The notes under the pieces: model-generated
Told to the model about the DNA's origin: nothing
The model's database searches: none
What the model saw: only the letters and a program-made list of their open reading frames with translations
Assembly: GCA_021158435.1 (NCBI GenBank)
Contig: JAGGUQ010000005.1
Span: 527-64,526 of the forward strand
Source of the DNA: a bacterium
GTDB taxonomy: Bacteria; Patescibacteriota; Patescibacteriia; UBA2591; MWDC01
Length of the DNA: 64,000 nt
Direction: 5' to 3'
Program-made: the position numbers and the translations under genes
Shown: one piece after another, positions 5,385 through 64,000 of the stretch
How the letters are laid out: every line of letters begins with the position of its first letter
Numbering within the stretch: the stretch's first letter is position 1

Positions 5385-5455
5385 CCCCCAAACTTCCCGG
5401 AGAGACTTCCCGGAGGCAGTCTCCGGAGGTACTCCGGAATTAGACGGAATTAGAA
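5385..5455. repeat. REP-like GC-rich palindromic array (CCGGAG / CTCCGGAGG units), locus A
   Basis: cttcccggagagacttcccggaggcagtctccggaggtactccggaat; same unit family recurs at 5 other intergenic loci. Confidence 0.8.
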
Positions 5456-5480
5456 AAGTTTATATTCAGATTTAGCTCTC

Positions 5481-5508
5481 TTGATATAAAATAAGATGGG
5501 TATATAAT
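5481..5508 (+). promoter_or_regulatory. candidate sigma70 promoter of abiEi (-35 TTGATA 5481-5486, 16-nt spacer, -10 TATAAT 5503-5508)
   Basis: Read directly from sequence; ~45 bp upstream of AbiEi start. Confidence 0.45.
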
Positions 5509-5520
5509 AAATATACCCAT
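5496..5520. promoter_or_regulatory. perfect inverted repeat ATGGGTATAT-aataa-ATATACCCAT overlapping the -10; candidate AbiEi autorepression operator
   Basis: 10-bp perfect arms with 5-nt spacer, seen in sequence; AbiEi antitoxins are known autoregulators binding inverted repeats. Confidence 0.45.
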
Positions 5521-5554
5521 TTCATTTACTTTAGAATAAACTAATATAACTGAA

Positions 5555-6205
5555 ATGGCTATAAGAAAGAGGCTTACAAAAAAGAAATTAACCTCCTTTA
5601 AGGTAGAAGAAGAATTGTTACGAAGAAATATTTTAATATTTTCTCCTCTTGAATTTAGACAAATTTTTAAAGTGACAAAGGAGGCAGCTGCTTTTTTTAT
5701 AAATTATAACTTAAAAAAGGGCTTTTTTATTAAATTAAGAAAAGGACTTTATTCTATGAAACATCATCCACCCTCTGAGTTAGAAATCGCTAATCGAGTT
5801 TACCAACCATCCTACGTTTCCTTAGAATACGCAATGATGTATTATCATATTATTCCTGATACTGTTTATAGTGTAACCTCTGTTACAACAAAAACAACTC
5901 GAGAATTTATTATTAATAATGTATCTTATACTTATAGTAGAATCAAAAAATCTTCTTTTACTGGTTATATAAAAAAATACTTAAACGGGAATATCGTTCT
6001 AATCGCTGAACCAGAAAAAGCTTTTATTGATTATCTTTATTTTGTTGACTTAGGGAAAAAGGTAATTTACGACCGCCTGAACATACACAATCTAACAAAA
6101 GAAAAAATGCTTAACTATGCAAAATTATTTAAGAGAAACTCATTGATAAAATTGTTAAACAACATATATGATAAGCGCCGAAGAAATAAAGAGATTATCT
6201 ATTAG
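5555..6205 (+). CDS. abiEi: AbiEi-family antitoxin / transcriptional regulator (type IV TA system)
   Basis: 216 aa; N-terminal wHTH-like region with KLRKGLYS (RGxY-type) motif, C-terminal PSYVSLEYAMMYYHIIPD domain; paralog of 55931..56518; precedes AbiEii gene with 38-nt overlap. Confidence 0.6.
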   Translation: MAIRKRLTKKKLTSFKVEEELLRRNILIFSPLEFRQIFKVTKEAAAFFINYNLKKGFFIKLRKGLYSMKHHPPSELEIANRVYQPSYVSLEYAMMYYHIIPDTVYSVTSVTTKTTREFIINNVSYTYSRIKKSSFTGYIKKYLNGNIVLIAEPEKAFIDYLYFVDLGKKVIYDRLNIHNLTKEKMLNYAKLFKRNSLIKLLNNIYDKRRRNKEIIY

Positions 6206-6905
6206 AGGGCAAACAAGCCCAACGGTTACCGCCAGAGAATATGTCCAACATTGCTTATTATCCGAACTGTACAAATTAGAAGGGGCTGAAAAGCTTCTAT
6301 TTAAAGGCGGAACTGCTTTAAGAATTATCTATCACAGCCCAAGATTCTCTGAAGATTTGGATTTTACGGGCATTCATCGCATTACTTACTATGAAATTAA
6401 GAATATTCTGACCAAAACGCTGGTCAACTTAAATAATTGGGGCTTTAAAACTGATATTAATGAAGCCAAAAAAACACCTGGGGGATATTTGGCGAATCTT
6501 AACTTCTCGTTTCTGGAATTTAAAATATCAATTAAAGTAGAAATCTCCTTTAGACAAAGCAAACAAAGACTAAAAGCAGAAATTTCCAGAATTAAAAATG
6601 AGTATATCCCATATTACGACATTATCCACCTACCGATAGAAGAAATAATTAAGGGAAAAATTAATGCTCTACTTTCACGAGCGAAAGCGCGTGATTGGTA
6701 TGATTTCTACTTCTTCCTAAATAATAGAATGCTTAGTCCTAAACAAAAAGATGTATTACCACAAATTTTACTAAAACTTAAAAGAACAAAGACAGATTTT
6801 AAAAAGGATTTAAAAAACTTTTTACCTCGCAGTCATTACTCGATACTCAAAAATTTTAAGAATAACTTAATAAAGGAAATTGAAGCTTACTCAAAAAAGG
6901 TTTAG
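6168..6905 (+). CDS. abiEii: AbiEii/AbiGii-family nucleotidyltransferase toxin (DUF1814)
   Basis: LLFKGGTALRIIYHSPRFSEDLDFTG nucleotidyltransferase motif (GGTAL..R.SEDxDF) and downstream KARDWYDFYF motif; paralog of 56493..57185. Confidence 0.75.
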   Translation: MISAEEIKRLSIRGQTSPTVTAREYVQHCLLSELYKLEGAEKLLFKGGTALRIIYHSPRFSEDLDFTGIHRITYYEIKNILTKTLVNLNNWGFKTDINEAKKTPGGYLANLNFSFLEFKISIKVEISFRQSKQRLKAEISRIKNEYIPYYDIIHLPIEEIIKGKINALLSRAKARDWYDFYFFLNNRMLSPKQKDVLPQILLKLKRTKTDFKKDLKNFLPRSHYSILKNFKNNLIKEIEAYSKKV

Positions 6906-33182: not shown

Positions 33183-34658
33183 TTAACTATTCTTTTTTTC
33201 TCCACTTGATAAATCAGAGGAACCTTTTTTTCTCCTATATTCTTTAAGACACTTTTTACAAAGCACTGGCCTAACTCCATCTGGGATAAAAGGAACTAAA
33301 ACTTTTGCCCCGCAAGAATCACATTTAGCTTCATAACGAGCAGAAGTTTTTGGAACAGGTGTTTTGCTTTCCTCCTGCTTTGTACTCCAAATATATATTT
33401 TCCTTTCAACTTCCTCTCTTTTCGAAGCATACCTTTCCCGAGAAACCCGAATAATCTTTTCAATATTACCTTCTGGTTTGGACAAAGGTGGTAAACCTAT
33501 AGCTGAAAAAGGATCTGAAGTTACTCCATCAACCATAAGTTTAACATACATTTCAAACTGATCTAAATTAACCATATCCTCAGGGGTAAAGAATGGATAA
33601 AACTCCTTGCTTAAAAATTCTGCATCTTCTGGCCCAACCCTAAAACAAACTATTGTTCCAACATTGCCTAAAATAGCTGATCTTACCTTAGTATCTAATT
33701 GATCAATATATTGATGGGCTAAAATTAAACCTAAATGATATTTCCTTGCTTCAGAAAGAATATTAACAAAAGCCTCTGTAGCAAAGTTTTGGAACTCATC
33801 AACATAAAGGTAAAAATCTTTCCTTTGATTCTCTGGCAAATCAATTCTACTCATTGCTGCTAACTGAATTTTAGTAATCATCATAGCTCCAATTAAAGCT
33901 GAGGCATCTTCTCCTATTCTACCTTTAGATAAATTTAAAATAAGAATTTTCTCTTCATCCATTATCTCTCTTAACCTAATTTTAGACTTAACCTGGCCAA
34001 TAATATTCCTAATTAGAGAAGTAGACAAAAACTGCCCAACCTTATTCTGGATAGGAGAAATTGCCTCAACCTGGAATCTATCTGGATAACGAGAAAATTC
34101 ATCTACCCAAAAAGATCTAACAACAGGATCAGTCAAATGAGTAACTACCCTTTTTCTAAAATCTTTGTCAGAAAGAATTCTCATAATACCCAATAAAGTA
34201 CTCCCTGGATATTCTAAAAGGGCTAAAATAGCATTACGCAAAACATATTCTAATCTTGGGCCCCAAGAATCTGCCCATAACTTTTTAAAAACAGCTATTA
34301 ATCCTGAAGCCACTAAATGCCTTTGAGAAGGATCAACATGCTCTAAAACATTAAAAGCAATGGGATAGTCTATATCAGCTGGGTTAAAATAAATTGTATC
34401 ATTAACCCTATAAGAAGGAATAAAATTTAAAACTTTCTCAGCTAAATCCCCATGCGGATCAATAACAGCCAAACCTCTCCCTGCTTTAACATCCTGATAA
34501 ATCATATTTTCTAACATTGTACTCTTTCCTGTCCCTGTTTTCCCAACCAAATACATATGGTGCCGACGATCTGGAGTTTTTATTCCAAAACGCCGATGAG
34601 TGTTTCGGTAGTTAATTTGACCAAAATAAACTACATCTTTTTGAGAGTCTTCATTCAT
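33183..34658 (-). CDS. soluble TraD/TrwB/VirD4-like (type IV coupling-protein family, DUF87-like) P-loop ATPase with C-terminal zinc ribbon
   Basis: 491 aa; MYLVGKTGTGKST..AVIDPHGDL (cf. TrwB GATGTGKS..DPNGDM), Walker B LYVDEFQNF, ILAHQ; C-terminal CDSCG..x17..CKKC; no N-terminal TM segment. Confidence 0.5.
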   Translation of the reverse strand: MNEDSQKDVVYFGQINYRNTHRRFGIKTPDRRHHMYLVGKTGTGKSTMLENMIYQDVKAGRGLAVIDPHGDLAEKVLNFIPSYRVNDTIYFNPADIDYPIAFNVLEHVDPSQRHLVASGLIAVFKKLWADSWGPRLEYVLRNAILALLEYPGSTLLGIMRILSDKDFRKRVVTHLTDPVVRSFWVDEFSRYPDRFQVEAISPIQNKVGQFLSTSLIRNIIGQVKSKIRLREIMDEEKILILNLSKGRIGEDASALIGAMMITKIQLAAMSRIDLPENQRKDFYLYVDEFQNFATEAFVNILSEARKYHLGLILAHQYIDQLDTKVRSAILGNVGTIVCFRVGPEDAEFLSKEFYPFFTPEDMVNLDQFEMYVKLMVDGVTSDPFSAIGLPPLSKPEGNIEKIIRVSRERYASKREEVERKIYIWSTKQEESKTPVPKTSARYEAKCDSCGAKVLVPFIPDGVRPVLCKKCLKEYRRKKGSSDLSSGEKKNS

Positions 34659-45258: not shown

Positions 45259-46095
45259 TTATTTCTTTTTCTTTTTCTTTGCTCTCCTTTGAAGAATAAA
45301 TTTATTTGTCCACTTTTTTTTCTTTCTTGTTTTAACTCCTAAAGCTGGTTTGCCCCAAGGAGTTTTTGGATGCTTTAATCCAATAGGGCTATGACCTTCT
45401 CCCCCTCCATGTGGATGATCAACAGGATTCATTGCTTTTCCTCTTACTGAAGGACGAATTCCTAAATGTCTTATCCTTCCTGCTTTACCATATCTTACAT
45501 TTTTATTTTCTGGATTACTTACTGCACCAACTGTAGCCAAACATTCCTTGTTTATCTTTCTTCTTTCTCCTGAGGGCATTTTAACAATAGCATAATTACC
45601 CTCGATTCCTAAAATATAAGCAGCTGATCCAGCAGAACGAACCAATTTACCTCCTTTTAATGGTTCAAGTTCAAGGTTATGAATTGGCACACCATAGGGA
45701 ATATATTTTAAAGGCATTCTATTCCCTATCTTAGGCTCAATTTTTTTCAAAGATGAATAAATTTCTGTTTTTAAACCTATTTTATCTGGAGCTAAAATAT
45801 ACCTTTTTTCACCATCTTTGTAAACAACCAAAGCTATCCATGCTGTTCTATTTGGGTCATATTCCAAGCTTTCCACCCGTCCAGGGATATCAAATTTATT
45901 TTGATAAAAATCTACTTTTCGATAAAGCCTTTTTGCTCCACCTCCCCTATGCCTTACTGTAACTTTCCCTTGACTTCTCCCTTGTCTTTTTAATGACCCT
46001 TTTTTCAAAGATTTTGGAGCTTCAACAACAGGCTTTGGCGCTTCAACCACGCTTGCTTTACGACGAGATGGAGTTGTTGGTTTATAGTATTTCAT
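45259..46095 (-). CDS. rplB: 50S ribosomal protein L2
   Basis: MKYYKPTTPSRR start (ATG at 46095; track ORF starts 3 codons upstream at TTG); conserved L2 C-terminal blocks. Confidence 0.95.
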   Translation of the reverse strand: MKYYKPTTPSRRKASVVEAPKPVVEAPKSLKKGSLKRQGRSQGKVTVRHRGGGAKRLYRKVDFYQNKFDIPGRVESLEYDPNRTAWIALVVYKDGEKRYILAPDKIGLKTEIYSSLKKIEPKIGNRMPLKYIPYGVPIHNLELEPLKGGKLVRSAGSAAYILGIEGNYAIVKMPSGERRKINKECLATVGAVSNPENKNVRYGKAGRIRHLGIRPSVRGKAMNPVDHPHGGGEGHSPIGLKHPKTPWGKPALGVKTRKKKKWTNKFILQRRAKKKKKK

Positions 46096-46104
46096 TATAT
46101 CCAA

Positions 46105-47444
46105 AATTAACCTTTGTGAACTGCTCTACACCTAGCGGCGTAAAGCTTCCTGCTTCAAAGTCAAGGGTATTCCCTCAACTCCACAGGCGTTGATTCCCCT
46201 AGTCCCTAGGGTATTTAAAGCTAAATTAAGAATGTTTCTGGCTGCATTAATGTCTCTGTCTATTCTTAAACCGCACTTAGGACATTTATGTATTCTGGTG
46301 GCTAATGTTTTTTCAACAATATTTCCGCAACCAGAACATATTTGAGATGTATTCTTGGGATTAACTCCAATAGCCCATATACCAGCTTCCTCCGCTTTGT
46401 AGATAAGCATTTGGAGAAATCTTGCCCAAGAAGCATCAGCAATCGACCTTGAAAGATATTTATTCTTGCTCATGCCTTTGATATTTAATTGCTCAAAGGC
46501 AATGAATTGAAAGTTGCTTACTAATTTATGACTTAATTTGTGAAGAAAATCTAATCTTTGATTGGTAATTTTCTCATGCAATCTGGCTAACTTTATTCTT
46601 GATTTATTTCTGTTCTTGCTTTTTAGTTTTTTTCTAGAATGCCACCTTTGAACTCTAGCCAGTTTTTCTTCTGTTTCTTTTAAATATCTAGGATTATCTA
46701 TTTTCTCCTCTTTGTCAGTAGTAAGAAAGTTATCTAATCCCAGGTCAATCCCGAGTATATTTTTATCCTTGATGTTCTTGATATTTGGCTTAACTGGCAA
46801 TTCTTGATTAATTTCTACAGCAAAACAAGCAAACCATTTGTTAGTATTTGTTCTTCTGATGATTAGGGCTTTAATATTCCCCTTAATCTCTCGATGAAGT
46901 TTGATTTTAAGAGAACCTATTTTTGAGAGATTAAGCTTGTTATTTTTTAATTCAAAACCTGATTGGGGATAAACCATGCTATCATATCGATACTTTCCTT
47001 TAAATCTGGGATAACCTGGTTTTTGCTTTTTTCCATTTTTACTCTCTTCAACTCTTTTAAAGAAATTTTGAAAAGCTTTATCTAATCTCCTAATTACATC
47101 TTGAAGGGTTTGAGAGTAAACTTGGTTTAATTCTGGCCTTTCCTTTTTAAGTTTTGGTATTTCTTTTATCTGGTCATAGCAAGAAATCTTTGTTTTATCT
47201 TTTTCATAAGCATTTCTTCTTTGTTCTAAGCAATGATTGTAAAGCCACCTACAAAGACAAAGTTGTTTTTCAAGAAGAGTTTGTTGTGTCTTAGTTGGAT
47301 ATATTCTGTATTTGTAGGTTCTGATTAACATATTTGTTTTTGTTCCTTTAAGCTTATCTACAGTATAGCGGATTTTTCTTGTTTTTATGCCTCAGGTATA
47401 CATAACTATCATTTACTTGTCAAGAAACATTACAGGCTCTCATC
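46105..47444 (-). mobile_element. IS605-family (IS1341-like) element carrying solo tnpB, inserted between rplW and rplB
   Basis: Fills exactly the rplW-stop to rplB-start interval; GC-rich structured 3' end (candidate right end / omegaRNA scaffold) at 46105-46200; no tnpA in vicinity. Confidence 0.7.
46132..47331 (-). CDS. tnpB: IS200/IS605-family transposase accessory protein TnpB (RuvC-like RNA-guided nuclease family)
   Basis: 399 aa; N-terminal MLIRTYKYRIYPTKTQQTLLEKQL; C-terminal zinc finger CSGCG..x13..CPKCG and RuvC-III IDRDINAARNI. Confidence 0.85.
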   Translation of the reverse strand: MLIRTYKYRIYPTKTQQTLLEKQLCLCRWLYNHCLEQRRNAYEKDKTKISCYDQIKEIPKLKKERPELNQVYSQTLQDVIRRLDKAFQNFFKRVEESKNGKKQKPGYPRFKGKYRYDSMVYPQSGFELKNNKLNLSKIGSLKIKLHREIKGNIKALIIRRTNTNKWFACFAVEINQELPVKPNIKNIKDKNILGIDLGLDNFLTTDKEEKIDNPRYLKETEEKLARVQRWHSRKKLKSKNRNKSRIKLARLHEKITNQRLDFLHKLSHKLVSNFQFIAFEQLNIKGMSKNKYLSRSIADASWARFLQMLIYKAEEAGIWAIGVNPKNTSQICSGCGNIVEKTLATRIHKCPKCGLRIDRDINAARNILNLALNTLGTRGINACGVEGIPLTLKQEALRR

Positions 47445-47744
47445 TCATCCTTTATAAAAGTCTATTTTTTGTGTTTTTGGAATATAAACTAAAGCTTTTT
47501 TTCTCTTTTTTGTTCGACCAACGCTTCTTCCATATCTTACTGTTTTCCCTTTAAGATTAATAATCCTTATTTTCTCTGGCTGAACATTATACATTTTCTT
47601 TATTGCTTGCTTGATTAAAACTTTATTAGCCTGTGGGTGAACCCAAAAAGTATAAATATTATAATTCTGCAACTCTGTAGCTTTTTCAGTTACTACTGGT
47701 TCAATAATATACTCTGTTGGTTGTTTAGAAACTACTTTACTCAT
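47445..47744 (-). CDS. rplW: 50S ribosomal protein L23
   Basis: 99 aa; IIEPVVTEKA..YTFWV. Confidence 0.9.
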   Translation of the reverse strand: MSKVVSKQPTEYIIEPVVTEKATELQNYNIYTFWVHPQANKVLIKQAIKKMYNVQPEKIRIINLKGKTVRYGRSVGRTKKRKKALVYIPKTQKIDFYKG

Positions 47745-54819: not shown

Positions 54820-54824
54820 CTTAC

Positions 54825-54901
54825 GGGCTGTGGCACAGTTGGTTAGCGCACTCGCCTGGGGGGCGAGAGGTCGCCGGTTCGAGTCCGGCCAGCCCGACCA
54901 G
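54825..54901 (+). tRNA. tRNA-Pro (anticodon GGG)
   Basis: Hand-folded cloverleaf: 7-bp acceptor CGGGCUG/CAGCCCG, anticodon stem CUCGC/GCGAG with loop CUGGGGG (G37), T-arm GCCGG-UUCGAGU-CCGGC, discriminator A, encoded CCA; coordinates +/-1. Confidence 0.85.
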
Positions 54902-55087: not shown

Positions 55088-55152
55088 TATTCCCGGAGCC
55101 ATCCCGGAGGTAGTCTCCGGAGGCAGCCTCCGGAGGCAGCCTCCGGGAAAGG
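55088..55152. repeat. REP-like GC-rich palindromic array, locus D
   Basis: cccggagccatcccggaggtagtctccggaggcagcctccggaggcagcctccggg; includes perfect 17-nt palindrome ccggaggcagcctccgg twice. Confidence 0.8.
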
Positions 55153-55247
55153 TCGGGGAAAAAACTCCAATTACTGGCGTCATTGAACCTTTTTTGAATA
55201 AAATCCGCAAGCAAGTTTTGAATAATCCTGAAAGGGCCTTACTCTTA

Positions 55248-55952
55248 TTATCTTCCCGCCAAATAAACGTTTTTTAGTTTCTCGTCGCTTAAAACCTCTT
55301 TTCCACCCTTCAGGACAATCTTGCCGCCTTCTAAAATATAAGTCCTGTGAGCAATTTCTGCTGCTTTCTTAACATTTTGCTCAACAATAATTATTGATAT
55401 GCCTTGTTTATTAATTTCTTTTATCTTTTCAAAAATTTCTTTCATTACTTTTGGTGCTAGCCCTAAAGAGGGTTCATCTAAAAGAAGTAATTCTGGGTCC
55501 TGAATTAGCGCTCTTGCTATAGCCAACATTTGTTGTTGGCCTCCGGACAAAGTAAAAGCTCTATCATTCTGCTTTTGTTTCAAAACCGGAAATTTTTCAA
55601 AAACGTCTTCCAAGTTTCTTTTAAATAACTTATGGTCTTTCATTATAAAAGCCCCCATTTCCAAATTTTCCCGGACAGTCAACGTGGGAAATATCTGCCT
55701 TCCTTGGGGAACATAAGAAATTCCTTCATAAATCAGGTAATAAGTGGGAAGATTTGTAATATCTTTATTCTTATATTCAATAGTTCCATTATAAATCTCA
55801 CATAAGTTAAAAATACTCTTTAATAGAGTTGATTTCCCAGCTCCATTGGGCCCGATCAAAGCCACAATTTCCGCTGGCTTTACTTCTAAGTCAACCCCAT
55901 GCAATATCTCCATTCCATTGTAGCCAGACTTTAGATTTTGGATATTGAGCAT
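55248..55952 (-). CDS. livF: LIV-type (HAAT family) ABC transporter ATP-binding protein LivF-like
   Basis: 234 aa; LIGPNGAGKSTLL Walker A, LSGGQQQMLAIARAL signature, LLLDEPS Walker B. Confidence 0.85.
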   Translation of the reverse strand: MLNIQNLKSGYNGMEILHGVDLEVKPAEIVALIGPNGAGKSTLLKSIFNLCEIYNGTIEYKNKDITNLPTYYLIYEGISYVPQGRQIFPTLTVRENLEMGAFIMKDHKLFKRNLEDVFEKFPVLKQKQNDRAFTLSGGQQQMLAIARALIQDPELLLLDEPSLGLAPKVMKEIFEKIKEINKQGISIIIVEQNVKKAAEIAHRTYILEGGKIVLKGGKEVLSDEKLKNVYLAGR

Positions 55953-56518
55953 ACAATTGGTCTTAAATATTTATTAAGCCGGGTATAATCCACTCTTTTT
56001 AAATAAGTTTTTAACCTTTTTTTATTCAAGCCCTCTAAATTCATCTCCTCTATATCAAATTTAGCATAACCATTTAATGAAAGATAAGCCTGATCTAAAA
56101 GGGCTTTCTCAGGAGTCGCGACTAAATAATTAGCTTCTTTTTTATACCCCCAAAACATTCTCTCTTGTAAATGATGGTAAATCAAATTCCTCTGACTTGT
56201 TTTTATAGTTTTACTTCTATTTATAGTAGCCAAGGTCAAATGAATAGGCTTTTGGCTCATTATATTATAATAACTTAACGCCCATTCAAAAGAAAGATAA
56301 CTTGGATAATAAATTTCTACAGCTAAACTCTGCCAATCAACTTTATTAATGTTAATAGTATAAACCCCTCTGGTAATTCTAATTAACTTCTTATCTTTTA
56401 CCAACCGATTGAGAGCTACTTTTAAACTTTTATCACTAAGATTGGTAATCTTTTTTATGTCAGCAAAATAAAAATAGGTTTTGGGAATAGATTTAATTCT
56501 TTCTGCTAATTTTTTCAT
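55931..56518 (-). CDS. abiEi: AbiEi-family antitoxin / regulator (second copy), encoded downstream of its toxin
   Basis: 195 aa; ITRGVYTININ and YYPSYLSFEWALSYYNIM paralogous to 5555..6205 protein. Confidence 0.6.
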   Translation of the reverse strand: MKKLAERIKSIPKTYFYFADIKKITNLSDKSLKVALNRLVKDKKLIRITRGVYTININKVDWQSLAVEIYYPSYLSFEWALSYYNIMSQKPIHLTLATINRSKTIKTSQRNLIYHHLQERMFWGYKKEANYLVATPEKALLDQAYLSLNGYAKFDIEEMNLEGLNKKRLKTYLKRVDYTRLNKYLRPIVCSISKI

Positions 56519-57185
56519 ATAATTGTTGAATTACTGGATAATATTCTTTAGGTAAAAATACTTGTAATTCGTTCCTAAACTCTCGCTCAGAGTATTTTGG
56601 CATCTTCTCTGGCAAAACAAAATTTTCTCTTAACAACCTAGAAATATACCATAAGTCGAAAACATCTCTTGCTTTTTTTCTTTTACTTAAACTTTCTTGC
56701 TTTAGTTTTTTTAATTCTGTGATAGTTGGGACTAAAAGCAATGGCTCTAAGGCACTAACTGGGCTTTTAATTAAAGATAATTCCTTGTCTAATTTTATTC
56801 TCTTATTTGGTTTATGAATTTCTACTTTTATAGAAAATGCGTGTTTTAACTTATTGTCCTTGATTAAAAATAAAGCAAACATTGTCTTTCTTTTATCCTT
56901 AGCATCTTTCAGTTGCCAATTTTGGTTATCTTTAACTGTTTGTTTAACCAAATCTCTAAAATCCGAAAAATTTATTTTCTTTATTTGAATCAAGTCTATA
57001 TCTTCTGAAAAACGGGGTGAACCATAAACCAGCCGCAAAGCTGTTCCTCCATAGAAAATAAGCTTAGAGGAAATTTTATGCTTAGCTAGCGCATTTAAAA
57101 AAATCACTTCTGCTTCTTCCTGTAAAATTCTATCTGCTGATATTTTTATTTTTTCAACCAAATTGTTTAATGTTTCAATATCCAT
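56493..57185 (-). CDS. abiEii: AbiEii/AbiGii-family nucleotidyltransferase toxin (second copy)
   Basis: 230 aa; LIFYGGTALRLVYGSPRFSEDIDLIQ and KARDVFDLWYI motifs. Confidence 0.75.
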   Translation of the reverse strand: MDIETLNNLVEKIKISADRILQEEAEVIFLNALAKHKISSKLIFYGGTALRLVYGSPRFSEDIDLIQIKKINFSDFRDLVKQTVKDNQNWQLKDAKDKRKTMFALFLIKDNKLKHAFSIKVEIHKPNKRIKLDKELSLIKSPVSALEPLLLVPTITELKKLKQESLSKRKKARDVFDLWYISRLLRENFVLPEKMPKYSEREFRNELQVFLPKEYYPVIQQLYEKISRKN

Positions 57186-57194
57186 AGATGCGTA

Positions 57195-57218
57195 AAAGTT
57201 AACAATTTTGTTAACTTT
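57195..57218. promoter_or_regulatory. perfect inverted repeat AAAGTTAACAA-tt-TTGTTAACTTT immediately upstream of second abiEii; candidate operator
   Basis: 11-bp perfect arms seen in sequence, 10 bp upstream of start codon. Confidence 0.4.
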
Positions 57219-57240
57219 ATTGTATCATTAATCTAAACCC

Positions 57241-57306
57241 AAGTCAACTCCATGCAATATCTCCATTCCATTGTAGCCAGACTTTAGATTTTTTACTGTA
57301 AGCATA
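57241..57306 (-). pseudogene. remnant 5' fragment of livF (first ~22 codons, MLTVKNLKSGYNGMEILHGVDL) forming a direct repeat with the intact livF 5' end
   Basis: 57241-57290 matches 55889-55938 at 49/50 nt; brackets the AbiE cassette. Confidence 0.7.
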
Positions 57307-57476
57307 AAAATCAAATTTAAGATTCAAGATTAAAGACTTAAAATTATCAGATAATTATATCATATTTTCCCAAACTAAAAAGCCGGCTTCACCGGCCTTT
57401 TGGTAGTGCAACCTTTCATCTCTCAACTTTACTCTTCGTATGCCACAAATTTGCCGTTTTTAGAACTTCATTTTTA

Positions 57477-57575
57477 CTCAATTACTTCTGGTCTTCCATT
57501 GATGATTTTCTTTACAACATACCCCAAACCTACAACATCTCCATTTTTATCAAAACGGTATTTACCGATAATTAA
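57477..57575 (-). pseudogene. remnant 3' fragment of a LIV-type substrate-binding protein gene (..IIGKYRFDKNGDVVGLGYVVKKIINGRPEVIE*)
   Basis: translates to a close paralog of the C-terminus of the 57632..58699 protein; lies directly downstream of that gene. Confidence 0.65.
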
Positions 57576-57631
57576 TCTATTTTCACCATACGGCACAAAG
57601 ACCTCTTTGGCCTTCTTAGAAAATATGGATT

Positions 57632-58699
57632 CTATTCAATTAACTCTGGTTTCCCGTTAATAATTTTTTTAATTGCAAATCCTATTCCTACTACATCTCC
57701 ATTACTATCAAATCTATATTTTCCTATCACTCCATCATATTCTTCTAATCCATACAAGTAATCTCTAATACATTCAGTATTTTCTCCACACTTTTTTAAA
57801 GCATCCGCTATTATATAAACTCTATCGTAGCTTGCTCCAGCATCCCAATCACTAGCAGGTTGCCCATATCGAGCAGTGTATTTATCCACGAAAATCTTAG
57901 CTTTAGGATTTTTTAAATCCAACACAGGAACATCTTCGAATATTATCCCTTCAGCTGCGGACCCGGCTGATTTTAAAGCATCTTCCCCACTAAAAACCCA
58001 TGTGCTAAGAATTGGCACATCAATTTTCATTTCTCTAATCTGTTTTGCCGCTAACCCTCCAGTTATACCTGAATAAGCGCCTAGAAATATTAGGTCTGGA
58101 TTGCTCGCTTTTATTTTTATTAATTGAGTCCTGTAATCCTTTTCTCCCAGTCCAAAAAGCTCATCGCTTACTATTTTCCCTCTTAATTGTTCAAATTTTT
58201 CTTTAAAAACATCTCTTAATCCGATTGTGACATCTGAACTTTCTGCCAAAATTGCCGCTTTTCTGTGTCCCCTGTCGAAAGCTAATTGAGCTAAAAACCT
58301 GCCAGCATCGTCGTCTCTAGGGCCATTTCTAAAAACAAAATCTCCTGCCTCTGAAATAGCAGGATTAGACGCATAAGAGCTAAATAAAATTACTTTATTC
58401 CTTTCTGCAATCGGTGCCATAGCTAACGTTTCAGCACTAGTCGTTCCACCTAAAACTACTTTTACCCCATCAATATTTATTAATTTCTGAATAGCTGTTA
58501 CTGCAGCCTGAGCTTCACCCTTCCCATCTTCAGGAATTAATTCTAGTTGTCTTCCATTTATTCCACCATCATTGTTTATTTCCTCAACTGCAAGTTCAAT
58601 AGCGTTTAATTCGCTCTGGCCATAATTAGCAGCATCACCACTTAAAGTTCCTACAAAACCAATCTTTATAACCTCTTCTTCAGCAGGCTTTCTACTCAC
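57632..58699 (-). CDS. LIV-type periplasmic substrate-binding protein paralog, N-terminally truncated (no signal peptide/anchor; GTG start) - possibly a pseudogene
   Basis: 355 aa; begins VSRKPAEEEV, which is internal (post-anchor) in paralog 58886..60055; in-frame TAG 3 codons upstream where the paralog has TGG; REP array immediately upstream. Confidence 0.6.
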   Translation of the reverse strand: MSRKPAEEEVIKIGFVGTLSGDAANYGQSELNAIELAVEEINNDGGINGRQLELIPEDGKGEAQAAVTAIQKLINIDGVKVVLGGTTSAETLAMAPIAERNKVILFSSYASNPAISEAGDFVFRNGPRDDDAGRFLAQLAFDRGHRKAAILAESSDVTIGLRDVFKEKFEQLRGKIVSDELFGLGEKDYRTQLIKIKASNPDLIFLGAYSGITGGLAAKQIREMKIDVPILSTWVFSGEDALKSAGSAAEGIIFEDVPVLDLKNPKAKIFVDKYTARYGQPASDWDAGASYDRVYIIADALKKCGENTECIRDYLYGLEEYDGVIGKYRFDSNGDVVGIGFAIKKIINGKPELIE

Positions 58700-58718
58700 C
58701 CCCCACTAAATTCCAGCA

Positions 58719-58795
58719 ATCCGGAGGCTGCCTATTTCCGGAGGCTGCCTCCGGGATGACTCCGGGATAACCTCCAGGATGAATCTGGAATTTCT
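58719..58795. repeat. REP-like GC-rich palindromic array, locus E
   Basis: aatccggaggctgcctatttccggaggctgcctccgggatgactccgggataacctccagg; includes perfect palindrome ccggaggctgcctccgg. Confidence 0.8.
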
Positions 58796-58885
58796 AACCC
58801 TATTCCGTGCAAAATTCCCATTCCATAAAAATTCATGAAAACTTTAGTTCTTTGAAAACCTTTACGGATAAAATTATATTTTGTT

Positions 58886-60055
58886 TCATTGCTGAACCTC
58901 CTGTGGATATTTTTCCATTAATACCTCAAATTTACCATTTCTTACAATCTTAAGTCCCCAGGACTTGGTTACATCCCCATGTTCATCAAACGTTATATCG
59001 CCAGTAACAGCAGGAAAATTTTTAATTCTGTACAACATTTTCTTTATATTATCCGAACTTGGAAAAGATGCTCGTTTTATTGCATAATAAATAACATTAA
59101 AAGCATCGTACGATAATGCAGTTACAATGCCTGGTTCCTCGGTAGTGTTAAAAAACTTTTGGTACCTATCCCTGAAACTTTTAACCCTGGAGTCAGAACT
59201 TTTGATATTAAACATGATAGAACCATATATTACTCCTTCTGCTGCCTCTCCTGCAATTTTTAGAACCTCTGGATTTTCAAAATCAGCTGTACTTAAAAAT
59301 TGCGGTTTAAAACCCATTTCGTGAGATTGTCTTACTATAAACCCCAACTCCTTAGAATGCCCTACAATTAATACTACTTCGGGATTTTTAATGCTTACTT
59401 TTAAAATTATTGTCCTAAAATCAGTGTTTCCTGGTTCATATCTTTCAGTTATAATGGAATTATTTTTTAAACCTAATTCTTTCAGTCTTTGAATATATTC
59501 ATCTTTTACTGCCAATCCAAATTCATCGCCTCTGTAAATTACTCCTACTCTTTTAGCAGTGAGTTCTCTGACTGTATAATCAGCAAGCATGATGCTTCTT
59601 TTTTCGTCGCTAGGATATATCCTAAAAATATAATCACCGGCTTTGGCTATATCCTTATGTGGAGCGGTAGGGGTAAGTAAAACTACTTTGGCTTTCTCTA
59701 CAATTGGAGCTACAGAAAGGACTTCATTACTGGATAAAGGCCCGATAATAGCTTGGACTTTATCTACTGATATCAATTTTTGAACAGCAGAAACTGCTTT
59801 TTTGGAGTCTGCCTCAGAATCTTCATAAATTATACGGAGCAGCTTTCTCTCATCTAAATTAAGTTCATCCAACGCTAATTCAATACCTTTCCTTAGCTGT
59901 TCTCCCCACGTGCTGGCAGGCCCAGAAAGAGGCGCTATAATCCCAATCTTAACTACCTCTTCTTCAGCAGGCTTTCTACTCACCCCCCACCAAATTCCAG
60001 CAATAACAACAATGATTACAATCAGCCAAACGATTGTTTTTGTTGTTTTGGACAT
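58886..60055 (-). CDS. LIV-type substrate-binding protein with N-terminal membrane anchor/signal
   Basis: 389 aa; N-terminal TM helix WLIVIIVVIAGIWWG then periplasmic binding protein type I fold (GIIAPLSGPAS..). Confidence 0.8.
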   Translation of the reverse strand: MSKTTKTIVWLIVIIVVIAGIWWGVSRKPAEEEVVKIGIIAPLSGPASTWGEQLRKGIELALDELNLDERKLLRIIYEDSEADSKKAVSAVQKLISVDKVQAIIGPLSSNEVLSVAPIVEKAKVVLLTPTAPHKDIAKAGDYIFRIYPSDEKRSIMLADYTVRELTAKRVGVIYRGDEFGLAVKDEYIQRLKELGLKNNSIITERYEPGNTDFRTIILKVSIKNPEVVLIVGHSKELGFIVRQSHEMGFKPQFLSTADFENPEVLKIAGEAAEGVIYGSIMFNIKSSDSRVKSFRDRYQKFFNTTEEPGIVTALSYDAFNVIYYAIKRASFPSSDNIKKMLYRIKNFPAVTGDITFDEHGDVTKSWGLKIVRNGKFEVLMEKYPQEVQQ

Positions 60056-60122
60056 AGTCTTATTTTCGCTTTAATAAGTTAATGTTCGACATTTTATATT
60101 ATTCCACTAATGTAAGAAAAGT

Positions 60123-60905
60123 TCAAGAAGAACCTGCAGAGAACTGCTCTCCCAAATATGCCTCTAAAACTTTAGGGTTGTTTTTTATTTGTGTTGGTGT
60201 ACCTTTGGCTAGGATTTTGCCCTGGTGCATTACAATTACTTCGTCGGAAACACTAAAAGCAAAATTTATATCATGTTCAATGAGGAGAATAGTCTCTCCC
60301 TGATATTTCAATTTAAGCAAAAGCCCTTTTATACTTTTTCTCAACTTGGGATTAACCCCTGCTACTGGCTCATCCAACATTAAAAATATATGAGGTTTTA
60401 ATACAGCTCTTATTAATTCTACTAATCTTTTCTGGCCATAGCTTAAATCTCTGCTGATTTTATTTTTAAATTTCTCCATTCCCACTAACCCTAACATTTG
60501 TTCAATTCTTTTTTCTTTATCTTTACCTACCTTATTCCCTCCTAAAAGATTTTTCCAGAATTTCACATCTTTATTATCCATTGCTAAAAGTAAATTTTCT
60601 TTAACTGTTAAATTATTAAATAAACGGGTTTGTTGGAATAAACGTGAGATTCCTAAATTAGAAATATCTTCTGGTTTTAAACCAGTGATATTCTTACCAT
60701 TAAAAACTACCTTCCCAGAATCTGGATTTATTAAGCCTAAGACAAGATTAAAAACAGTACTTTTTCCTGCTCCATTTGGTCCAATTAAAGCAGTAATTTT
60801 GCCTTTTTCAACTTCAAAATCACAACTATCAACTGCTTTCACACCACCAAAATATTTTTTTAGATTTTTTATTTGAAGAATGTTACTCCAGTTCGATTCT
60901 ACCAT
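60123..60905 (-). CDS. livG: LIV-type ABC transporter ATP-binding protein LivG-like
   Basis: 260 aa; KYFGGVKAV, LIGPNGAGKSTVFN, LSYGQKRLVELIRA, LMLDEP. Confidence 0.85.
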   Translation of the reverse strand: MVESNWSNILQIKNLKKYFGGVKAVDSCDFEVEKGKITALIGPNGAGKSTVFNLVLGLINPDSGKVVFNGKNITGLKPEDISNLGISRLFQQTRLFNNLTVKENLLLAMDNKDVKFWKNLLGGNKVGKDKEKRIEQMLGLVGMEKFKNKISRDLSYGQKRLVELIRAVLKPHIFLMLDEPVAGVNPKLRKSIKGLLLKLKYQGETILLIEHDINFAFSVSDEVIVMHQGKILAKGTPTQIKNNPKVLEAYLGEQFSAGSS

Positions 60906-61755
60906 ATAACCCGCGTGGTTTTTTAATTAATATTAAAAGCAAAAGTAAGGCATAAATCATCTGCCTGGCTGGTCCAATAATTGATGAAGGAAAACCAACG
61001 AATCTCAATGGTTCTGGTAGTAACACTAAGATTATGGTGGCAATAATTGTGCCTTTTAATGAAGCTAAGCCACCAATAATCACAATTGCTAATACTGGAA
61101 TTAACTGTGATAAAGTAAATGAAGAGGGGTCAATAAAAGTAATATAATATGCATATAAAGAACCAGCAATTCCTGCAAAAAAAGCAGAAATCCCTAAAGC
61201 ATAACTCTTCATTTTAAAAGTATTTTTACCTAAAACCCTAGTTGCCAGTTCATCATCTCGTATTGCTTCTAATACTCTTCCAAAAGGGGATTTGGTAATT
61301 CTTGTAATGATTAAATAAGAAATTAAAGCAATAACAAAAACTAAAACTAAGAAACTAAAATTATCAGAAAAAGTAAAACCAAATAAACTTGGTTTAGGAA
61401 TTCCCGGCAACCCTAAAGGCCCTCTAGTCAAACCTGTCCAATTCAAAGTAATAGCATAAATAACAAAAGTAAAAGCCAAAGTAGCTAAAGCTAAATAGTC
61501 TCCTTTAAGTTTGTTAGTGGAAATGGCTAATAAAAAGCCAAAAAACATTGCACCTATACCAGCTAATAAAAAACAAAACCAAAAAGGTAGGCCAGCTAAG
61601 GCAAGTAAAGCTGAAATATAGGCACCAATTGCATAAAAAGCAATATGACCAAGATTAAGCAAACCAGTAAAACCAACTGACAATTGCAAGGAAATCGCCA
61701 GAATCAAATAAATCCCAATTAAAATTAATAAGTGAATTAAGTAAGCTGATATCAT
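60883..61755 (-). CDS. livM: LIV-type ABC transporter permease LivM-like
   Basis: 290 aa, ~8 TM; overlaps livG start by 23 nt. Confidence 0.8.
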   Translation of the reverse strand: MISAYLIHLLILIGIYLILAISLQLSVGFTGLLNLGHIAFYAIGAYISALLALAGLPFWFCFLLAGIGAMFFGFLLAISTNKLKGDYLALATLAFTFVIYAITLNWTGLTRGPLGLPGIPKPSLFGFTFSDNFSFLVLVFVIALISYLIITRITKSPFGRVLEAIRDDELATRVLGKNTFKMKSYALGISAFFAGIAGSLYAYYITFIDPSSFTLSQLIPVLAIVIIGGLASLKGTIIATIILVLLPEPLRFVGFPSSIIGPARQMIYALLLLLILIKKPRGLYGRIELE

Positions 61756-61758
61756 GCC

Positions 61759-62898
61759 TTATTTAATCATTAAAACTTTTTTCTTTCCATTTTCTATTAT
61801 TTTTTTTATGGCCATTGGTTTTAACACATCTCCTTTTCCATCAAAAGTAATAGTTCCTGATACACCCTGATAATTTTTTATCGTATATAATTCATCCTTT
61901 ATACAGGATGATAGATCAGTTTCTGCCTTACATTCCTTAATAGCTTTTATAATCAAATTAAAAGCATCAAAACCTTCTGCTGCATATAATGCAGGGGCAC
62001 GATTAAATTTTTCTTCAAACATATTTTCAAACTTCTCAACTTCTCTGCCCGAAGGATCTGCTTGAAGAATATAAATAACTCCATTTGCTGATTCTCCTGC
62101 TGCTTCAAGAACAAATGGATCTTCCAATGCCTCTGTTTGAAAATATAAAGGCAAGGACAATCCAAGTTCTTGGGCTTGTTTCAAAATAATAACCGAATCT
62201 GCTGGATATGATACTATTACAATAGCCTGAATATTCTGATTCTTAATTTTCATCAATTGAGTTTTAACGTCTTTTGTCCCTTGTGCGTACGATTCAATTG
62301 CAACTATTTTACCACCCAATTCTTCAAATCTCTTCTTAAAAGAATCTTTATTACCAGCACCTCCTTCGTTATTAATATACAAAATGGCTACTTTGTTTAA
62401 ACCAACGTCATTTTTTATGTAGTCTGCAAAAACCTCTCCTCTTAAAGCATCAGATGGTACAACCCTAAAAACATAATCACCCGCATCTGAAATCTTTGGA
62501 CTAGTAGAAGCGGGACTAATCAGAGGGACTTCACTTTTTTCTACAATTGGGGCTATGGCTAATGTCACAGAACTACAAACTGCTCCAATAATCGCATCCA
62601 CCTCATCTATATTAATTAATTTTTGAACAGCACTAACCCCTTTAGCTGGATCACACTGAGTATCTTCATAAATTACCTCTACTTTTTTATTATCAACTCT
62701 ATTCTTTATTAGCTCTAAAGCCAGTTCAATACCCTCTTTTGGCGGTACGCCCCATTGACTGGCCTCGCCAGTAAGAGGAGCTAAAACTCCTATTTTAACC
62801 AATCCCTCGGTGGTTTTTCCCGTACCAAATACAAAAACCAAAGCAACAATAATTGCAATAATTATTATCCCAATAATAATTTGTAGTGTCTTGCTCAT
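61759..62898 (-). CDS. LIV-type substrate-binding protein with N-terminal anchor (paralog 1)
   Basis: 379 aa; N-terminal TM IIIGIIIIAIIVALVFVF then KIGVLAPLTGEAS.. binding-protein fold. Confidence 0.8.
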   Translation of the reverse strand: MSKTLQIIIGIIIIAIIVALVFVFGTGKTTEGLVKIGVLAPLTGEASQWGVPPKEGIELALELIKNRVDNKKVEVIYEDTQCDPAKGVSAVQKLINIDEVDAIIGAVCSSVTLAIAPIVEKSEVPLISPASTSPKISDAGDYVFRVVPSDALRGEVFADYIKNDVGLNKVAILYINNEGGAGNKDSFKKRFEELGGKIVAIESYAQGTKDVKTQLMKIKNQNIQAIVIVSYPADSVIILKQAQELGLSLPLYFQTEALEDPFVLEAAGESANGVIYILQADPSGREVEKFENMFEEKFNRAPALYAAEGFDAFNLIIKAIKECKAETDLSSCIKDELYTIKNYQGVSGTITFDGKGDVLKPMAIKKIIENGKKKVLMIK

Positions 62899-62943
62899 AA
62901 AATTAGATTTAAGTTGTTAGTTATAAGATTTAAGTAAAACGAC

Positions 62944-63062
62944 CTTCCGGAACATCCCGAAGAACATCCCGGAGGCAGTCTCCGGAGGTAGGCAGTCTCC
63001 GGAGGTAGTCTCCGGAGGCAGACTCCGGGAAGTCCATGGACTTCGGGATGGAGTATCCGGGA
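62944..63062. repeat. REP-like GC-rich palindromic array, locus F (largest; includes 22-nt palindrome ccgggaagtccatggacttcggg)
   Basis: ccggaggcagtctccggaggtaggcagtctccggaggtagtctccggaggcagactccgggaagtccatggacttcggg. Confidence 0.85.
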
Positions 63063-63155
63063 GTAAAACCAACTGACAATTGTAAGGAAATCGCCAGAAT
63101 CAAATAAATCCCAATTAAAATTAATAAGTGAATTAAGTAAGCTGATATCATGCCT
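63062..63155 (-). pseudogene. duplicated 5' fragment of livM (first 29 codons plus 5 nt upstream), 93/94 nt identical to 61666..61759
   Basis: direct comparison of the two stretches in the sequence; fragment ORF then runs into the REP array. Confidence 0.8.
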
Positions 63156-63156
63156 G

Positions 63157-64000
63157 TTATTTACTATTTCTCCCAATCCCCAAAATCCCCTGATGCCTAA
63201 ATAAAAGGAAAATGAAGAGGATTGCAAAAGCAATAGCGTCTTTGTAGCCAGACGGTAAAAACCAAATGCCAAAGTTTTCAGCGAACCCCAATAAAAATGA
63301 ACCAAGAACAGCACCAGGAACAGAACCAATCCCTCCAATAATCGCTCCAGTAAAACCTTTAATCATTAAATTGGTTCCCATCATTGGTTCGAGATTCTGT
63401 TCTAAACCAACTAAAATAGCAGCTATACCAGCAATAGCCGAACCAACAATAAAAGCCCAAGAATATATGTTTTCTGCTGAAATACCAACAACTTCAGCAA
63501 CTTCTTTATTGTCAGCCACTGCCCTCATTGCTTTACCAATTTTGGTTCTTTTCATAAAGAAATAAAGCAAAACAAGTAAAACAAGAGAGACAGCAATAAT
63601 TACAATTTGCAAAGGAGTAATAATTGCTCCTAAAAAATCAAATCCTCTTGCTATTTTTACATAACCAATCGTTTTAACATCTGCCCCAAATAGCATCAAA
63701 ATTAAGGATTCAAAAAATATCAAAAGGGCAAAACTGGTCATCAGTAAAATAACTTTACTAGCTTTTCTTTGACGAAGTTTTTTGTAAACAACCTTATCCA
63801 TCAACCAACCTAAAAGAGAGGCAAAGATAATAGTAAAAATCACTGACAATCCAAAACTTAAACCTAAATCAGAAAAAAGAAAGTATAAAAAATAGGCGCT
63901 AAAAGCAATTGTTGCGCCATGAGCAAAATGAACAAACTTACAAGTCGAGTAAATCAAAGAAAAGCCACTTGCTACTAAAGCATAAATGGCTCCAGCAATT
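63157..64000 (-). CDS. livH: LIV-type ABC transporter permease LivH-like, 5' end beyond window
   Basis: multi-TM; N-terminal region contains ..IYSTCKFVHFAHGATIAFSAY (NFAHGE-type motif); reading frame stays open to window edge. Confidence 0.8.
   Translation of the reverse strand, partial: IAGAIYALVASGFSLIYSTCKFVHFAHGATIAFSAYFLYFLFSDLGLSFGLSVIFTIIFASLLGWLMDKVVYKKLRQRKASKVILLMTSFALLIFFESLILMLFGADVKTIGYVKIARGFDFLGAIITPLQIVIIAVSLVLLVLLYFFMKRTKIGKAMRAVADNKEVAEVVGISAENIYSWAFIVGSAIAGIAAILVGLEQNLEPMMGTNLMIKGFTGAIIGGIGSVPGAVLGSFLLGFAENFGIWFLPSGYKDAIAFAILFIFLLFRHQGILGIGRNSK

Follow-up and report, generated by a model that had tools for sequence, protein, structure and literature searches.

Variable binding-protein slots and gene fragments resembling exchange scars in a LIV-type ABC transporter operon of a Patescibacteriota bacterium

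Importers of the LIV-I/HAAT type (LivJ/K-LivHMGF) are ATP-binding cassette (ABC) transporters built from two BPD_transp_2 permeases, the ATPases LivG and LivF, and solute-binding proteins (SBPs) of the Peripla_BP_6 family, and the service of one permease by several binding proteins is a known ABC arrangement. An operon with the same components is present in a stretch of 64,000 nucleotides (nt) from the Patescibacteriota contig JAGGUQ010000005.1 (GenBank assembly GCA_021158435.1), hereafter called the window, whose coordinates are used throughout; loci and contigs included for comparison carry numbers beginning with L. Unlike the described importers, the window operon has genes for membrane-anchored SBPs interleaved among its permease and ATPase genes, the number and identity of these SBPs vary between close relatives, and toxin-antitoxin (TA) modules lie within the operon. 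We somewhat favour the interpretation that the operon consists of a conserved backbone (livH, livM-livG, and a terminator followed by livF) with variable slots between its parts, and that the gene pieces found in the locus are scars of exchange in those slots.

Four other described systems each share features with this locus, and none of them fits it fully. Repetitive extragenic palindromic (REP) elements, including those of the BIME and REPIN kinds, are GC-rich extragenic palindromes that occur in many copies, mostly after genes and inside operons, and that form stable hairpins, and the same can be said of palindrome arrays in the window. However, the unit in the window is a perfect 10-nt palindrome every 13 nt rather than a 20-40-nt imperfect palindrome or an inverted doublet, and the arrays are limited to one species-level lineage. 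Reportedly, REP sequences were found by Shyamala et al. in 1990 at the join-points of duplications in enterobacteria; two window arrays likewise sit at novel joints, although each of these has a REP array on one side and unique coding DNA on the other, and neither joins one REP to another. Homology-facilitated illegitimate recombination, which de Vries and Wackernagel are said to have reported in 2002 for naturally transformable bacteria, inserts foreign DNA by means of one homologous anchor and one illegitimate joint, and it predicts both kinds of scar seen here, whereas neither a donor nor microhomology was identified at the window joints. We know of no demonstration of this process in bacteria of the candidate phyla radiation (CPR). 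The displaced orphan modules that follow rhs/cdiA toxin genes are matched here by a complete SBP gene (SBP2) with a shared 5' module and, after it, a 5'-truncated paralogue (SBP3), and recombination between the two modules could swap gene bodies. Unlike in the rhs/cdiA case, the shared module (leader plus anchor) is at the 5' end and not ahead of a C-terminal toxin domain, and no swap product was observed. Finally, the cassette arrays of integrons, both the chromosomal ones with TA cassettes and those reported from archaea (PMC9668308), resemble the inserts described below in that they comprise small exchangeable genes with many TA modules, vary among close relatives, and occur in CPR and DPANN-labelled genomes. 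Here, by contrast, no IntI (among the ORFs scanned), attI or attC was found, the cassettes are interleaved with transporter genes, and what marks their borders is remnants of genes together with 5' modules held in common.

Every gene of the locus is encoded by the minus strand (Table 1), and Pfam and NCBIfam confirm every assignment. In the order of transcription, livH is followed by a 5' fragment of livM (livM'), REP array F, a leader, SBP1, livM, livG, SBP2, REP array E and SBP3, and after SBP3 come a 3' fragment of another SBP gene (SBPx'), a remnant of a fourth (SBP4), a terminator, a promoter-like region with a 5' fragment of livF (livF'), the AbiEii and AbiEi genes, the intact livF gene and REP array D. 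A preliminary description of this DNA had given the order livH-SBP1-livM-livG-SBP2-SBP3-livF, which is borne out by the domain matches, and had also reported REP arrays E and F, which are real, and a 94-bp duplicate of the livM 5' end, which a repeat scan of the locus against itself recovers. Its list of scars was about half complete: livM' was included, and the AbiE pair, livF', the truncation of SBP3, the two SBP 3' remnants and a 70-nt block common to SBP2 and SBP3 were absent from it. The livM' fragment is directly preceded by the livH stop codon and leads into REP array F, and it opens a 73-codon open reading frame (ORF; 63151..62930) that reads into the array. An assembly artefact is ruled out, since several independent metagenome assemblies contain contigs with this architecture, at 99.3-99.97% identity, and a sister lineage (L097; 96-97.5% identity across the shared backbone) has it too.

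Table 1. Features of the LIV-type locus in the order of transcription, in window coordinates (strand '.' for REP arrays)
Feature	Position	Strand	Remarks
livH permease	63157..64000	-	Pfam BPD_transp_2 (PF02653), E 1.3e-32; extends past window end
livM' fragment	63062..63155	-	4 nt of leader plus first 30 livM codons; 93/94 identity to 61666-61759
REP array F	62946..63061	.	head-to-tail 13-nt units, degenerate outer units; fold -58.4 kcal/mol, z -4.2
SBP leader	62899..62945	-	AAGGTCG...ACTTAAATCTTATAACTAACAACTTAAATCTAATTTT, 47 nt; precedes SBP1
SBP1	61759..62898	-	LivJ-type binding protein, 379 amino acids, N-terminal membrane anchor; Pfam Peripla_BP_6 (PF13458), E 5.7e-64
livM permease, intact	60883..61755	-	Pfam BPD_transp_2 (PF02653), E 4.1e-51
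livG ATPase	60123..60905	-	Pfam ABC_tran and BCA_ABC_TP_C (PF12399); NCBIfam LivG E 7.6e-68
SBP2	58886..60055	-	anchored binding protein, 389 amino acids; Pfam E 1.1e-53
REP array E	58720..58790	.	fused directly to truncated SBP3 5' end; RNA fold -37.3 kcal/mol
SBP3	57632..58720	-	start and about 17 membrane-anchor codons lost; remaining ORF 355 amino acids from GTG 58699
SBPx' fragment	57474..57631	-	3' fragment of another SBP gene (...IIGKYRFDKNGDVVGLGYVVKKIINGRPEVIE*); 72% nt identity to SBP3 3' end
SBP4 remnant	57429..57467	-	last ~10 codons, KNGKFVAYEE*; L097 SBP4 ends VKNGKFVVYEE*
Intrinsic terminator	57376..57405	-	GCCGG-TGAAG-CCGGC and T run; between SBP slot and livF; conserved in L097 and L100
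livF promoter-like region, leader and livF'	57228..57365	-	ATG 57305; livF codons 1-22, then GLD and stop
livF' fragment	57240..57305	-	52 nt nearly identical to 55888-55939
TA cassette, first part	56493..57247	-	promoter TTGACT, 17 nt, TACAAT (57247-57219), inverted repeat GTTAACAAAATTGTTAAC, and AbiEii (57185..56493); Pfam AbiEii E 6.9e-17
AbiEi antitoxin	55931..56518	-	NCBIfam TAA_AbiEi E 2.7e-12 (under model cut-off); Pfam AbiEi_4
livF ATPase, intact	55248..55952	-	NCBIfam LivF E 2.3e-67; UrtE E 1.7e-72
REP array D	55090..55162	.	3' of livF, operon end; RNA fold -49.2 kcal/mol, z -6.1

By domain content, the transporter is an ordinary member of the LIV/HAAT family. SBP1, SBP2 and SBP3 all match PF13458, with E values from 1e-53 to 6e-64, and the solved structures closest to them are the branched-chain amino-acid binding proteins 3td9 and 4gnr, matches that place the three proteins in the LivJ-like family and no finer. 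The domain matches assign no substrate, because the NCBIfam scores of all transporter genes are far under the curated equivalog cut-offs; models for UrtE and UrtD score as high as the Liv models. The livH product is 290 amino acids long in L081, where the gene is complete. The window LivM protein is 84% identical in amino acids to its counterparts in L001 and L008, and an exact look-up of its sequence returned no record.

Comparison with close relatives shows the SBP1-livM junction to be older than the 99%-identical duplicate of the livM 5' end, since L083 (SBP1 87% identical; DNA 84.5-88.8% identical), L093 and L094 (both 91%) all have it without the fragment: in these loci livH, 11 nt, SBP1, 3 nt and livM follow one another, and there is no REP array. 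A block of about 245 nt comprising livM', REP array F and the leader is the part specific to the window lineage. The livM' fragment is present in all strain contigs and in L097, and the joints on either side of REP array F (with livM' and with the leader) are invariant among strains. A comparison with L097, aimed at gene conversion between livM' and livM, found the 90 nt identical in both lineages. Orthologues of SBP1 (76-91% identical) are found at different slot positions in relatives, such that another SBP gene lies between livH and SBP1 in L095, three lie there in L096, and the orthologue itself is located between livG and livF in L084.

The sister lineage L097 provides the most direct view of a change of slot content. 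It shares livM', livF', the TA pair and four REP arrays with the window, and its slot after SBP2 contains REP array E, a leader and a complete anchored SBP4 gene. Homology between the two sequences stops inside REP array E, after CCTCCGGAAATA, placing the left end of the replaced segment inside the array, and it resumes at 57461, which is 10 codons before the SBP4 stop codon. The same 10-codon remnant follows the last SBP gene in L099 and L100, and it is a conserved right-hand border of the slot. Relative to L097, the window has SBP3 and the SBPx fragment in place of SBP4, and the breakpoint on the left falls in or at REP array E; we regard this as a directly visible replacement of one cassette by another.

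Protein identities of 41% (SBP1 and SBP2), 36% (SBP1 and SBP3) and 32% (SBP2 and SBP3) rule out recent duplication of SBP genes in situ, and these genes are old and exchangeable rather than local duplicates. The orthologues of SBP3 (P0122-P0124; 379-383 amino acids, 76-84% identical) all start with the anchor MNKTTKILIWLIVIIVVIAGIWWG, whereas in the window the remnant of the anchor directly abuts REP array E and carries an in-frame TAG where SBP2 has TGG. A 70-nt block of SBP3 (58651-58720) is 90% identical to the SBP2 5' module (59935-60004), and the SBP3 linker SRKPAEEEV matches SBP2 of the same genome, not the SBP3 orthologues (SKKSTEKGT); the block is therefore a tract of recombination or gene conversion. 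The repeat scan also aligned 57472-57569 with 57630-57727 (98 nt, 72%). SBP3 and the gene fragments are probably non-functional. The stretch 57587-57616, at the joint between SBP3 and SBPx', contains the start or end of four same-species contigs that come from different assemblies, and this may indicate structural variation in the population.

Shared 5' modules composed of leader and anchor are also found in other loci. Among the 61 loci with at least two SBP genes, 12-14 share such a module at 85-99% nt identity over 75-235 nt (L019 and L151, 100% identical over 271 nt, being excluded from the 14 as likely overlapping windows at contig ends), and yet the SBPs that share it are just 24-42% identical in protein, a pattern that SBP2 and SBP3 of the window fit. 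Over 37 nt, the leader before SBP1 is the same as one that precedes a different SBP gene in L083, even though the coding DNA of the two genomes is merely 85-89% identical, and a similar leader precedes SBP4 of L097. Such a leader could be a regulatory or translation signal, or it could be part of a recombining module. The leader motif AAGGYCG...CTTAAATCTTAYAAC...CTTAAATCT is present at 62899-62945 of the window, at L083:1913-1960 and at L097:6940-6997, where the SBPs belong to different families.

The TA cassette near the end of the operon has the composition of a type IV AbiE system, in that the gene for the AbiEii nucleotidyltransferase toxin adjoins that for the AbiEi antitoxin. The toxin gene comes first, unlike in the AbiE pairs of L008, L013 and L030, and the last AbiEi codons overlap the start of the replacement livF gene. 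The repeat scan aligned 55888-55971 with 57241-57324 (84 nt at 82%, including a nearly exact stretch of 52 nt), and the intact livF gene starts with MLNIQ while the native fragment livF' starts with MLTVK, so that their first five codons differ. In L100, the terminator, the promoter and an intact livF gene follow without interruption and there is no TA pair. Because the upstream region of L100 matches that of livF', we consider livF' to be the native start and the diverged replacement start to have been brought by the TA cassette, which appears to have been inserted after livF codon 22. Given that the replacement start is diverged, the cassette probably came from a homologous position in another LIV operon. 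A sigma-70 scan found 31 promoter-like sites versus 31 in shuffled sequence, and the TA promoter and the terminator listed in Table 1 are to be read as sequence observations only.

Both livF' and the AbiE pair are also present in L097. By hand count, livF' differs between the window and L097 by five changes in 75 nt, three of which alter amino acids, whereas the intact livF start differs by two changes, both silent. Thus, livF' fits a relic, because it changes faster than the intact start and its changes include amino-acid replacements. One site is T in both window copies of livF and C in both L097 copies, which hints at continued recombination between the livF repeats, and recombination of this kind could also delete the cassette precisely. 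A second AbiEi/AbiEii pair is located at 5395-6905 of the window on the plus strand (genes at 5555..6205 and 6168..6905; Pfam AbiEii E 4.7e-25), directly after REP array A and between a Wzz-like gene and recA, and it resembles the AbiE pairs in the slots of L008, L013 and L030.

Two scans of the collection yielded 160 loci, whose taxonomy was taken from record titles only. When slots were counted in loci of other species with backbone identity of at least 55% and placeable flanking core genes, at least one SBP gene was present between livH and livM in 25 of 66 loci, between livM and livG in 14 of 65, and between livG and livF in 29 of 50. This design is shared by about 150 related loci of CPR bacteria and DPANN-labelled contigs, and their slots hold from zero to six divergent SBP genes between the conserved livH, livM-livG and livF genes. 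Also found in them are AbiE, HicAB (HicA), ParE-type, PIN, PemK/MazF and HepT-nucleotidyltransferase modules, in addition to 23S_rRNA_IVP, PDDEXK_3 and AAA_14/DUF4143 genes, radical SAM enzymes and methyltransferases, and the small genes among these are selfish-looking, of types typical of selfish or cassette-borne DNA. Genes for 23S_rRNA_IVP four-helix-bundle proteins, PDDEXK_3 proteins and AAA_14/DUF4143 ATPases recur in the slots of L005, L010, L045, L070, L102, L103, L110, L130 and others.

The succession of a 5' fragment, an insert and an intact gene likewise recurs in genomes that are free of REP arrays. In L083 (1460-1504, 3104), a livH fragment of 15 codons, 100% identical, is followed by a terminator, a leader, an SBP gene and livH. 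A livH fragment in L075 (5086-6600) precedes a nucleotidyltransferase/HEPN pair and then the intact livH gene, and the duplicates flanking this insert are 94.6% identical over 185 nt, upstream DNA included. The L001 locus has livF codons 1-22, then MntA/HepT and an SBP gene, and then livF, and the same pattern, again REP-free, is seen in L030, L033 and L067.

Each unit of the REP arrays in the window consists of a 10-nt palindrome, CCTCCGGAGG, and a further 3 nt; the units follow one another head to tail, the outer ones being degenerate, in contrast to the REPIN architecture of two inverted REPs with a spacer. When up to three mismatches are allowed, the motif CCGGAGGCAGCCTCCGG has 22 strand-matches in the window versus 0 expected. 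Six arrays (A to F) are present in the window and a seventh lies just upstream of livH in L081, and all seven are intergenic; arrays B and C bracket the housekeeping gene tsaD, where there is no scar. Three of the six in-window arrays fall within the 8-kb LIV locus, for which a binomial estimate, uncorrected for intergenic space, is about 0.03. When folded as RNA, arrays D, E and F reach -37 to -58 kcal/mol, values much lower than those of shuffled controls, and z scores for the array folds range from -3 to -6. Between strains, the arrays alone vary in length, by 12-17 nt. They are confined to contigs of this species and L097/L098, and none was found among about 165 loci from other species. 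Rfam has no family matching the arrays or the leaders, its sole match being a tRNA gene (54824-54897, plus strand; RF00005, 61 bits) between an M50 peptidase gene and REP array D. No Y1 (REP-associated tyrosine, or RAYT) transposase was found among the Pfam-scanned window ORFs or the precomputed domain calls of L085 (about 66 kb of genome, with the ribosomal-protein block and several other window ORFs unscanned). A candidate 8-nt target duplication (GTTTTACT) flanking REP array F was rejected, as its right copy belongs to the SBP leader and is homologous to L083 (GAAAGGTCG-ACTTAAATC), the extra TTTT being a small indel.

From the anatomy of the locus and the states observed in its relatives, we infer both a mechanism of recombination and an order of events. 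SBP genes and TA modules would be gained, replaced and lost in the slots by the entry of DNA that has one end anchored by homology, in a backbone gene or in the leader-plus-anchor module shared by SBP genes, and the other end joined illegitimately. If the anchor is downstream, an incoming cassette with its own copy of the gene start would join illegitimately within the resident gene and leave the resident start behind as a fragment, as proposed for livM' and livF'. If the anchor is upstream, in livG or in an SBP 5' module, it is the 3' end of the displaced SBP gene that would be left, as proposed for SBPx' and the SBP4 remnant. A circular cassette integrating via a shared segment would produce the same picture. 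At the livM'/REP F and REP E/SBP3 joints, the REP arrays probably supplied a breakpoint or a deletion endpoint, and SBP3 may have acquired its present form in two steps, namely replacement of SBP4 via the shared 5' module and then loss of the DNA between the REP hairpin and a point within the anchor.

Several observations weigh against this interpretation. Among the assembled contigs, no donor molecule, circular intermediate or same-population empty-site variant was seen. The livM' fragment is identical to livM from -4 to +90 except for one base, and an origin within the same genome by template switching fits this at least as well as import does. The state that preceded the livM' event cannot be reconstructed, and the tight livH-SBP1 arrangement of the REP-less relatives conflicts, on grounds of parsimony, with a simple insertion of SBP1. 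Moreover, the window and the distant L001 (L001:12875-14900) have exactly the same livF' breakpoint, after codon 22, a coincidence that a site-specific process would explain more readily than illegitimate joining; different TA modules adjoin livF' in these two genomes, and in both the fragment differs from the intact gene at codons 2-5 and nearly matches it over codons 6-22. Finally, given the presence of REP arrays at two of about five joints and their modest enrichment in the locus, it is possible that these elements have a causal share.

A larger role for these elements was proposed in the preliminary description, according to which REP arrays may mediate segmental duplications that yield the extra SBPs and the odd gene order, or may insert preferentially at such duplications, and every rearrangement junction coincides with an array. 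Its view of a remodelled locus whose SBP set is the variable part is retained here, whereas we consider it improbable that REP-associated segmental duplication produced the remodelling. Arrays F and E do abut livM' and the truncated SBP3, respectively, the breakpoint relative to L097 is inside array E, half of the in-window arrays are in the LIV locus, and there is the reported enterobacterial precedent for REP sequences at duplication join-points. However, there are at least five novel joints, and three of them are REP-free: SBP3/SBPx' (57632/57631), SBPx'/SBP4 remnant (at about 57470) and livF'/TA cassette (57240/57239). The low identity among the three SBPs also argues against segmental duplication, as do the unscarred arrays around tsaD, the livH-SBP1-livM order of L083, L093 and L094 in a setting without REP arrays or fragments, which for this segment is the very state that the preliminary description had named as refuting its view, and the interleaved SBP genes in loci of other species that have no such arrays. 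Because three joints are REP-free, arrays elsewhere are unscarred, and the same remodelling is observed in REP-free genomes, REP arrays are neither necessary nor sufficient for it and are at most helpers. They may nevertheless contribute to some joints, since two joints abut arrays, one breakpoint is inside array E, the arrays expand and contract, and they are modestly enriched in the locus. Thus, the palindromic repeats mark some of the breakpoints and are not the engine of remodelling.

Template switching within the same genome, through fork stalling or break-induced replication, is an unlikely explanation for the locus as a whole, though less so than a REP-driven one. A strand would copy the cassette elsewhere and return upstream of its point of exit, with REP hairpins as stall sites, and this accommodates the near identity of livM' to livM over 94 nt, the sharp ends of the fragment at an intergenic start and at a REP hairpin, the strong folding of the arrays, and the L075 duplicates that include upstream DNA. 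However, the diverged codons 1-5 of the replacement livF are not those of the resident copy and point to another LIV operon, most examples in other genomes are found without hairpin repeats, and the nested SBP 3' remnants are left unexplained. We give very little weight to the idea that an integron-like or equivalent system inserts SBP and TA cassettes site-specifically, at fixed positions in backbone genes. The coincidence of the livF' breakpoints of the window species and L001, each with a different TA module, would suit such a system, the slots are rich in TA modules like chromosomal integrons, and integrons are reported in DPANN-type archaea (PMC9668308). Integrons are defined by IntI with attI and by attC sites of 55-140 nt, whereas no integrase or recombinase domain was found among the Pfam-scanned window ORFs or the precomputed L085 calls (the ribosomal-protein block and several ORFs being unscanned), and the junctions between cassettes and backbone, at 3-20 nt (L083, L093 and L095 have examples of 3, 11 and 20 nt), are too short for an attC-like site as judged by length. 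In addition, the livM' and livH' breakpoints differ among genomes. It is equally doubtful that the fragments have been kept for a function, whether as upstream ORFs that carry ribosomes over REP hairpins or couple translation, or, for the anchorless SBP3, in a new role. The livM' and livF' fragments do retain start codons and open frames in both the window and L097, and the SBP3 ORF is intact across 355 codons, but livF' has accumulated amino-acid changes that the intact start has not, the closest relatives lack the fragments, and all SBP3 orthologues keep their anchor.

Taken by itself, the window locus is a modest variant of known repeat-associated scarring, and the comparative pattern is of greater interest. 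Backbone genes are 60-85% identical in protein between the window and many CPR genomes and DPANN-labelled contigs (e.g. L026, L043, L011, L021; L001-L080, L097-L176), including a 762-kb Woesearchaeota contig, and this similarity suggests transfer of the whole operon between the CPR and DPANN radiations. A more speculative proposal, which we put forward only tentatively, is that the LIV operon of these organisms is a cassette platform without an integrase. Its highly conserved backbone would have moved between radiations, its slots would capture SBPs, TA modules and selfish genes, leader-anchor modules and backbone gene starts would serve as portable recombination sites, and truncated SBP genes such as SBP3 would be silent cassettes that can be re-armed. 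CPR and DPANN organisms have tiny genomes and must import most of their building blocks, and if recombination repeatedly refits one backbone with new SBPs, this would be a cheap way to change nutrient range as well as a visible route of gene flow between the radiations. That TA modules are located among the transporter genes suggests two further possibilities: selfish elements may find shelter in the operon, or they may stabilise it. We found no description of a slot-type LIV operon in CPR or DPANN in the searchable literature; one paper on horizontal transfer of ABC transporters concerns a different family, COG1131.

Two features outside the LIV locus complete the survey of the window. A gene for an IS605-type OrfB/TnpB (Cas12f-like) protein of 399 amino acids (46132-47331, minus strand) is located between rplW (47445..47744) and rplB (45259..46104) in the S10 ribosomal-protein operon, and neither a REP-like cluster nor strong terminal hairpins were seen next to it. 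A gene for a VirD4/TraG-like coupling protein (TrwB_AAD_bind, TraG-D_C; 33183-34658, minus strand), of a type common in CPR genomes, adjoins the ribosomal-protein block.

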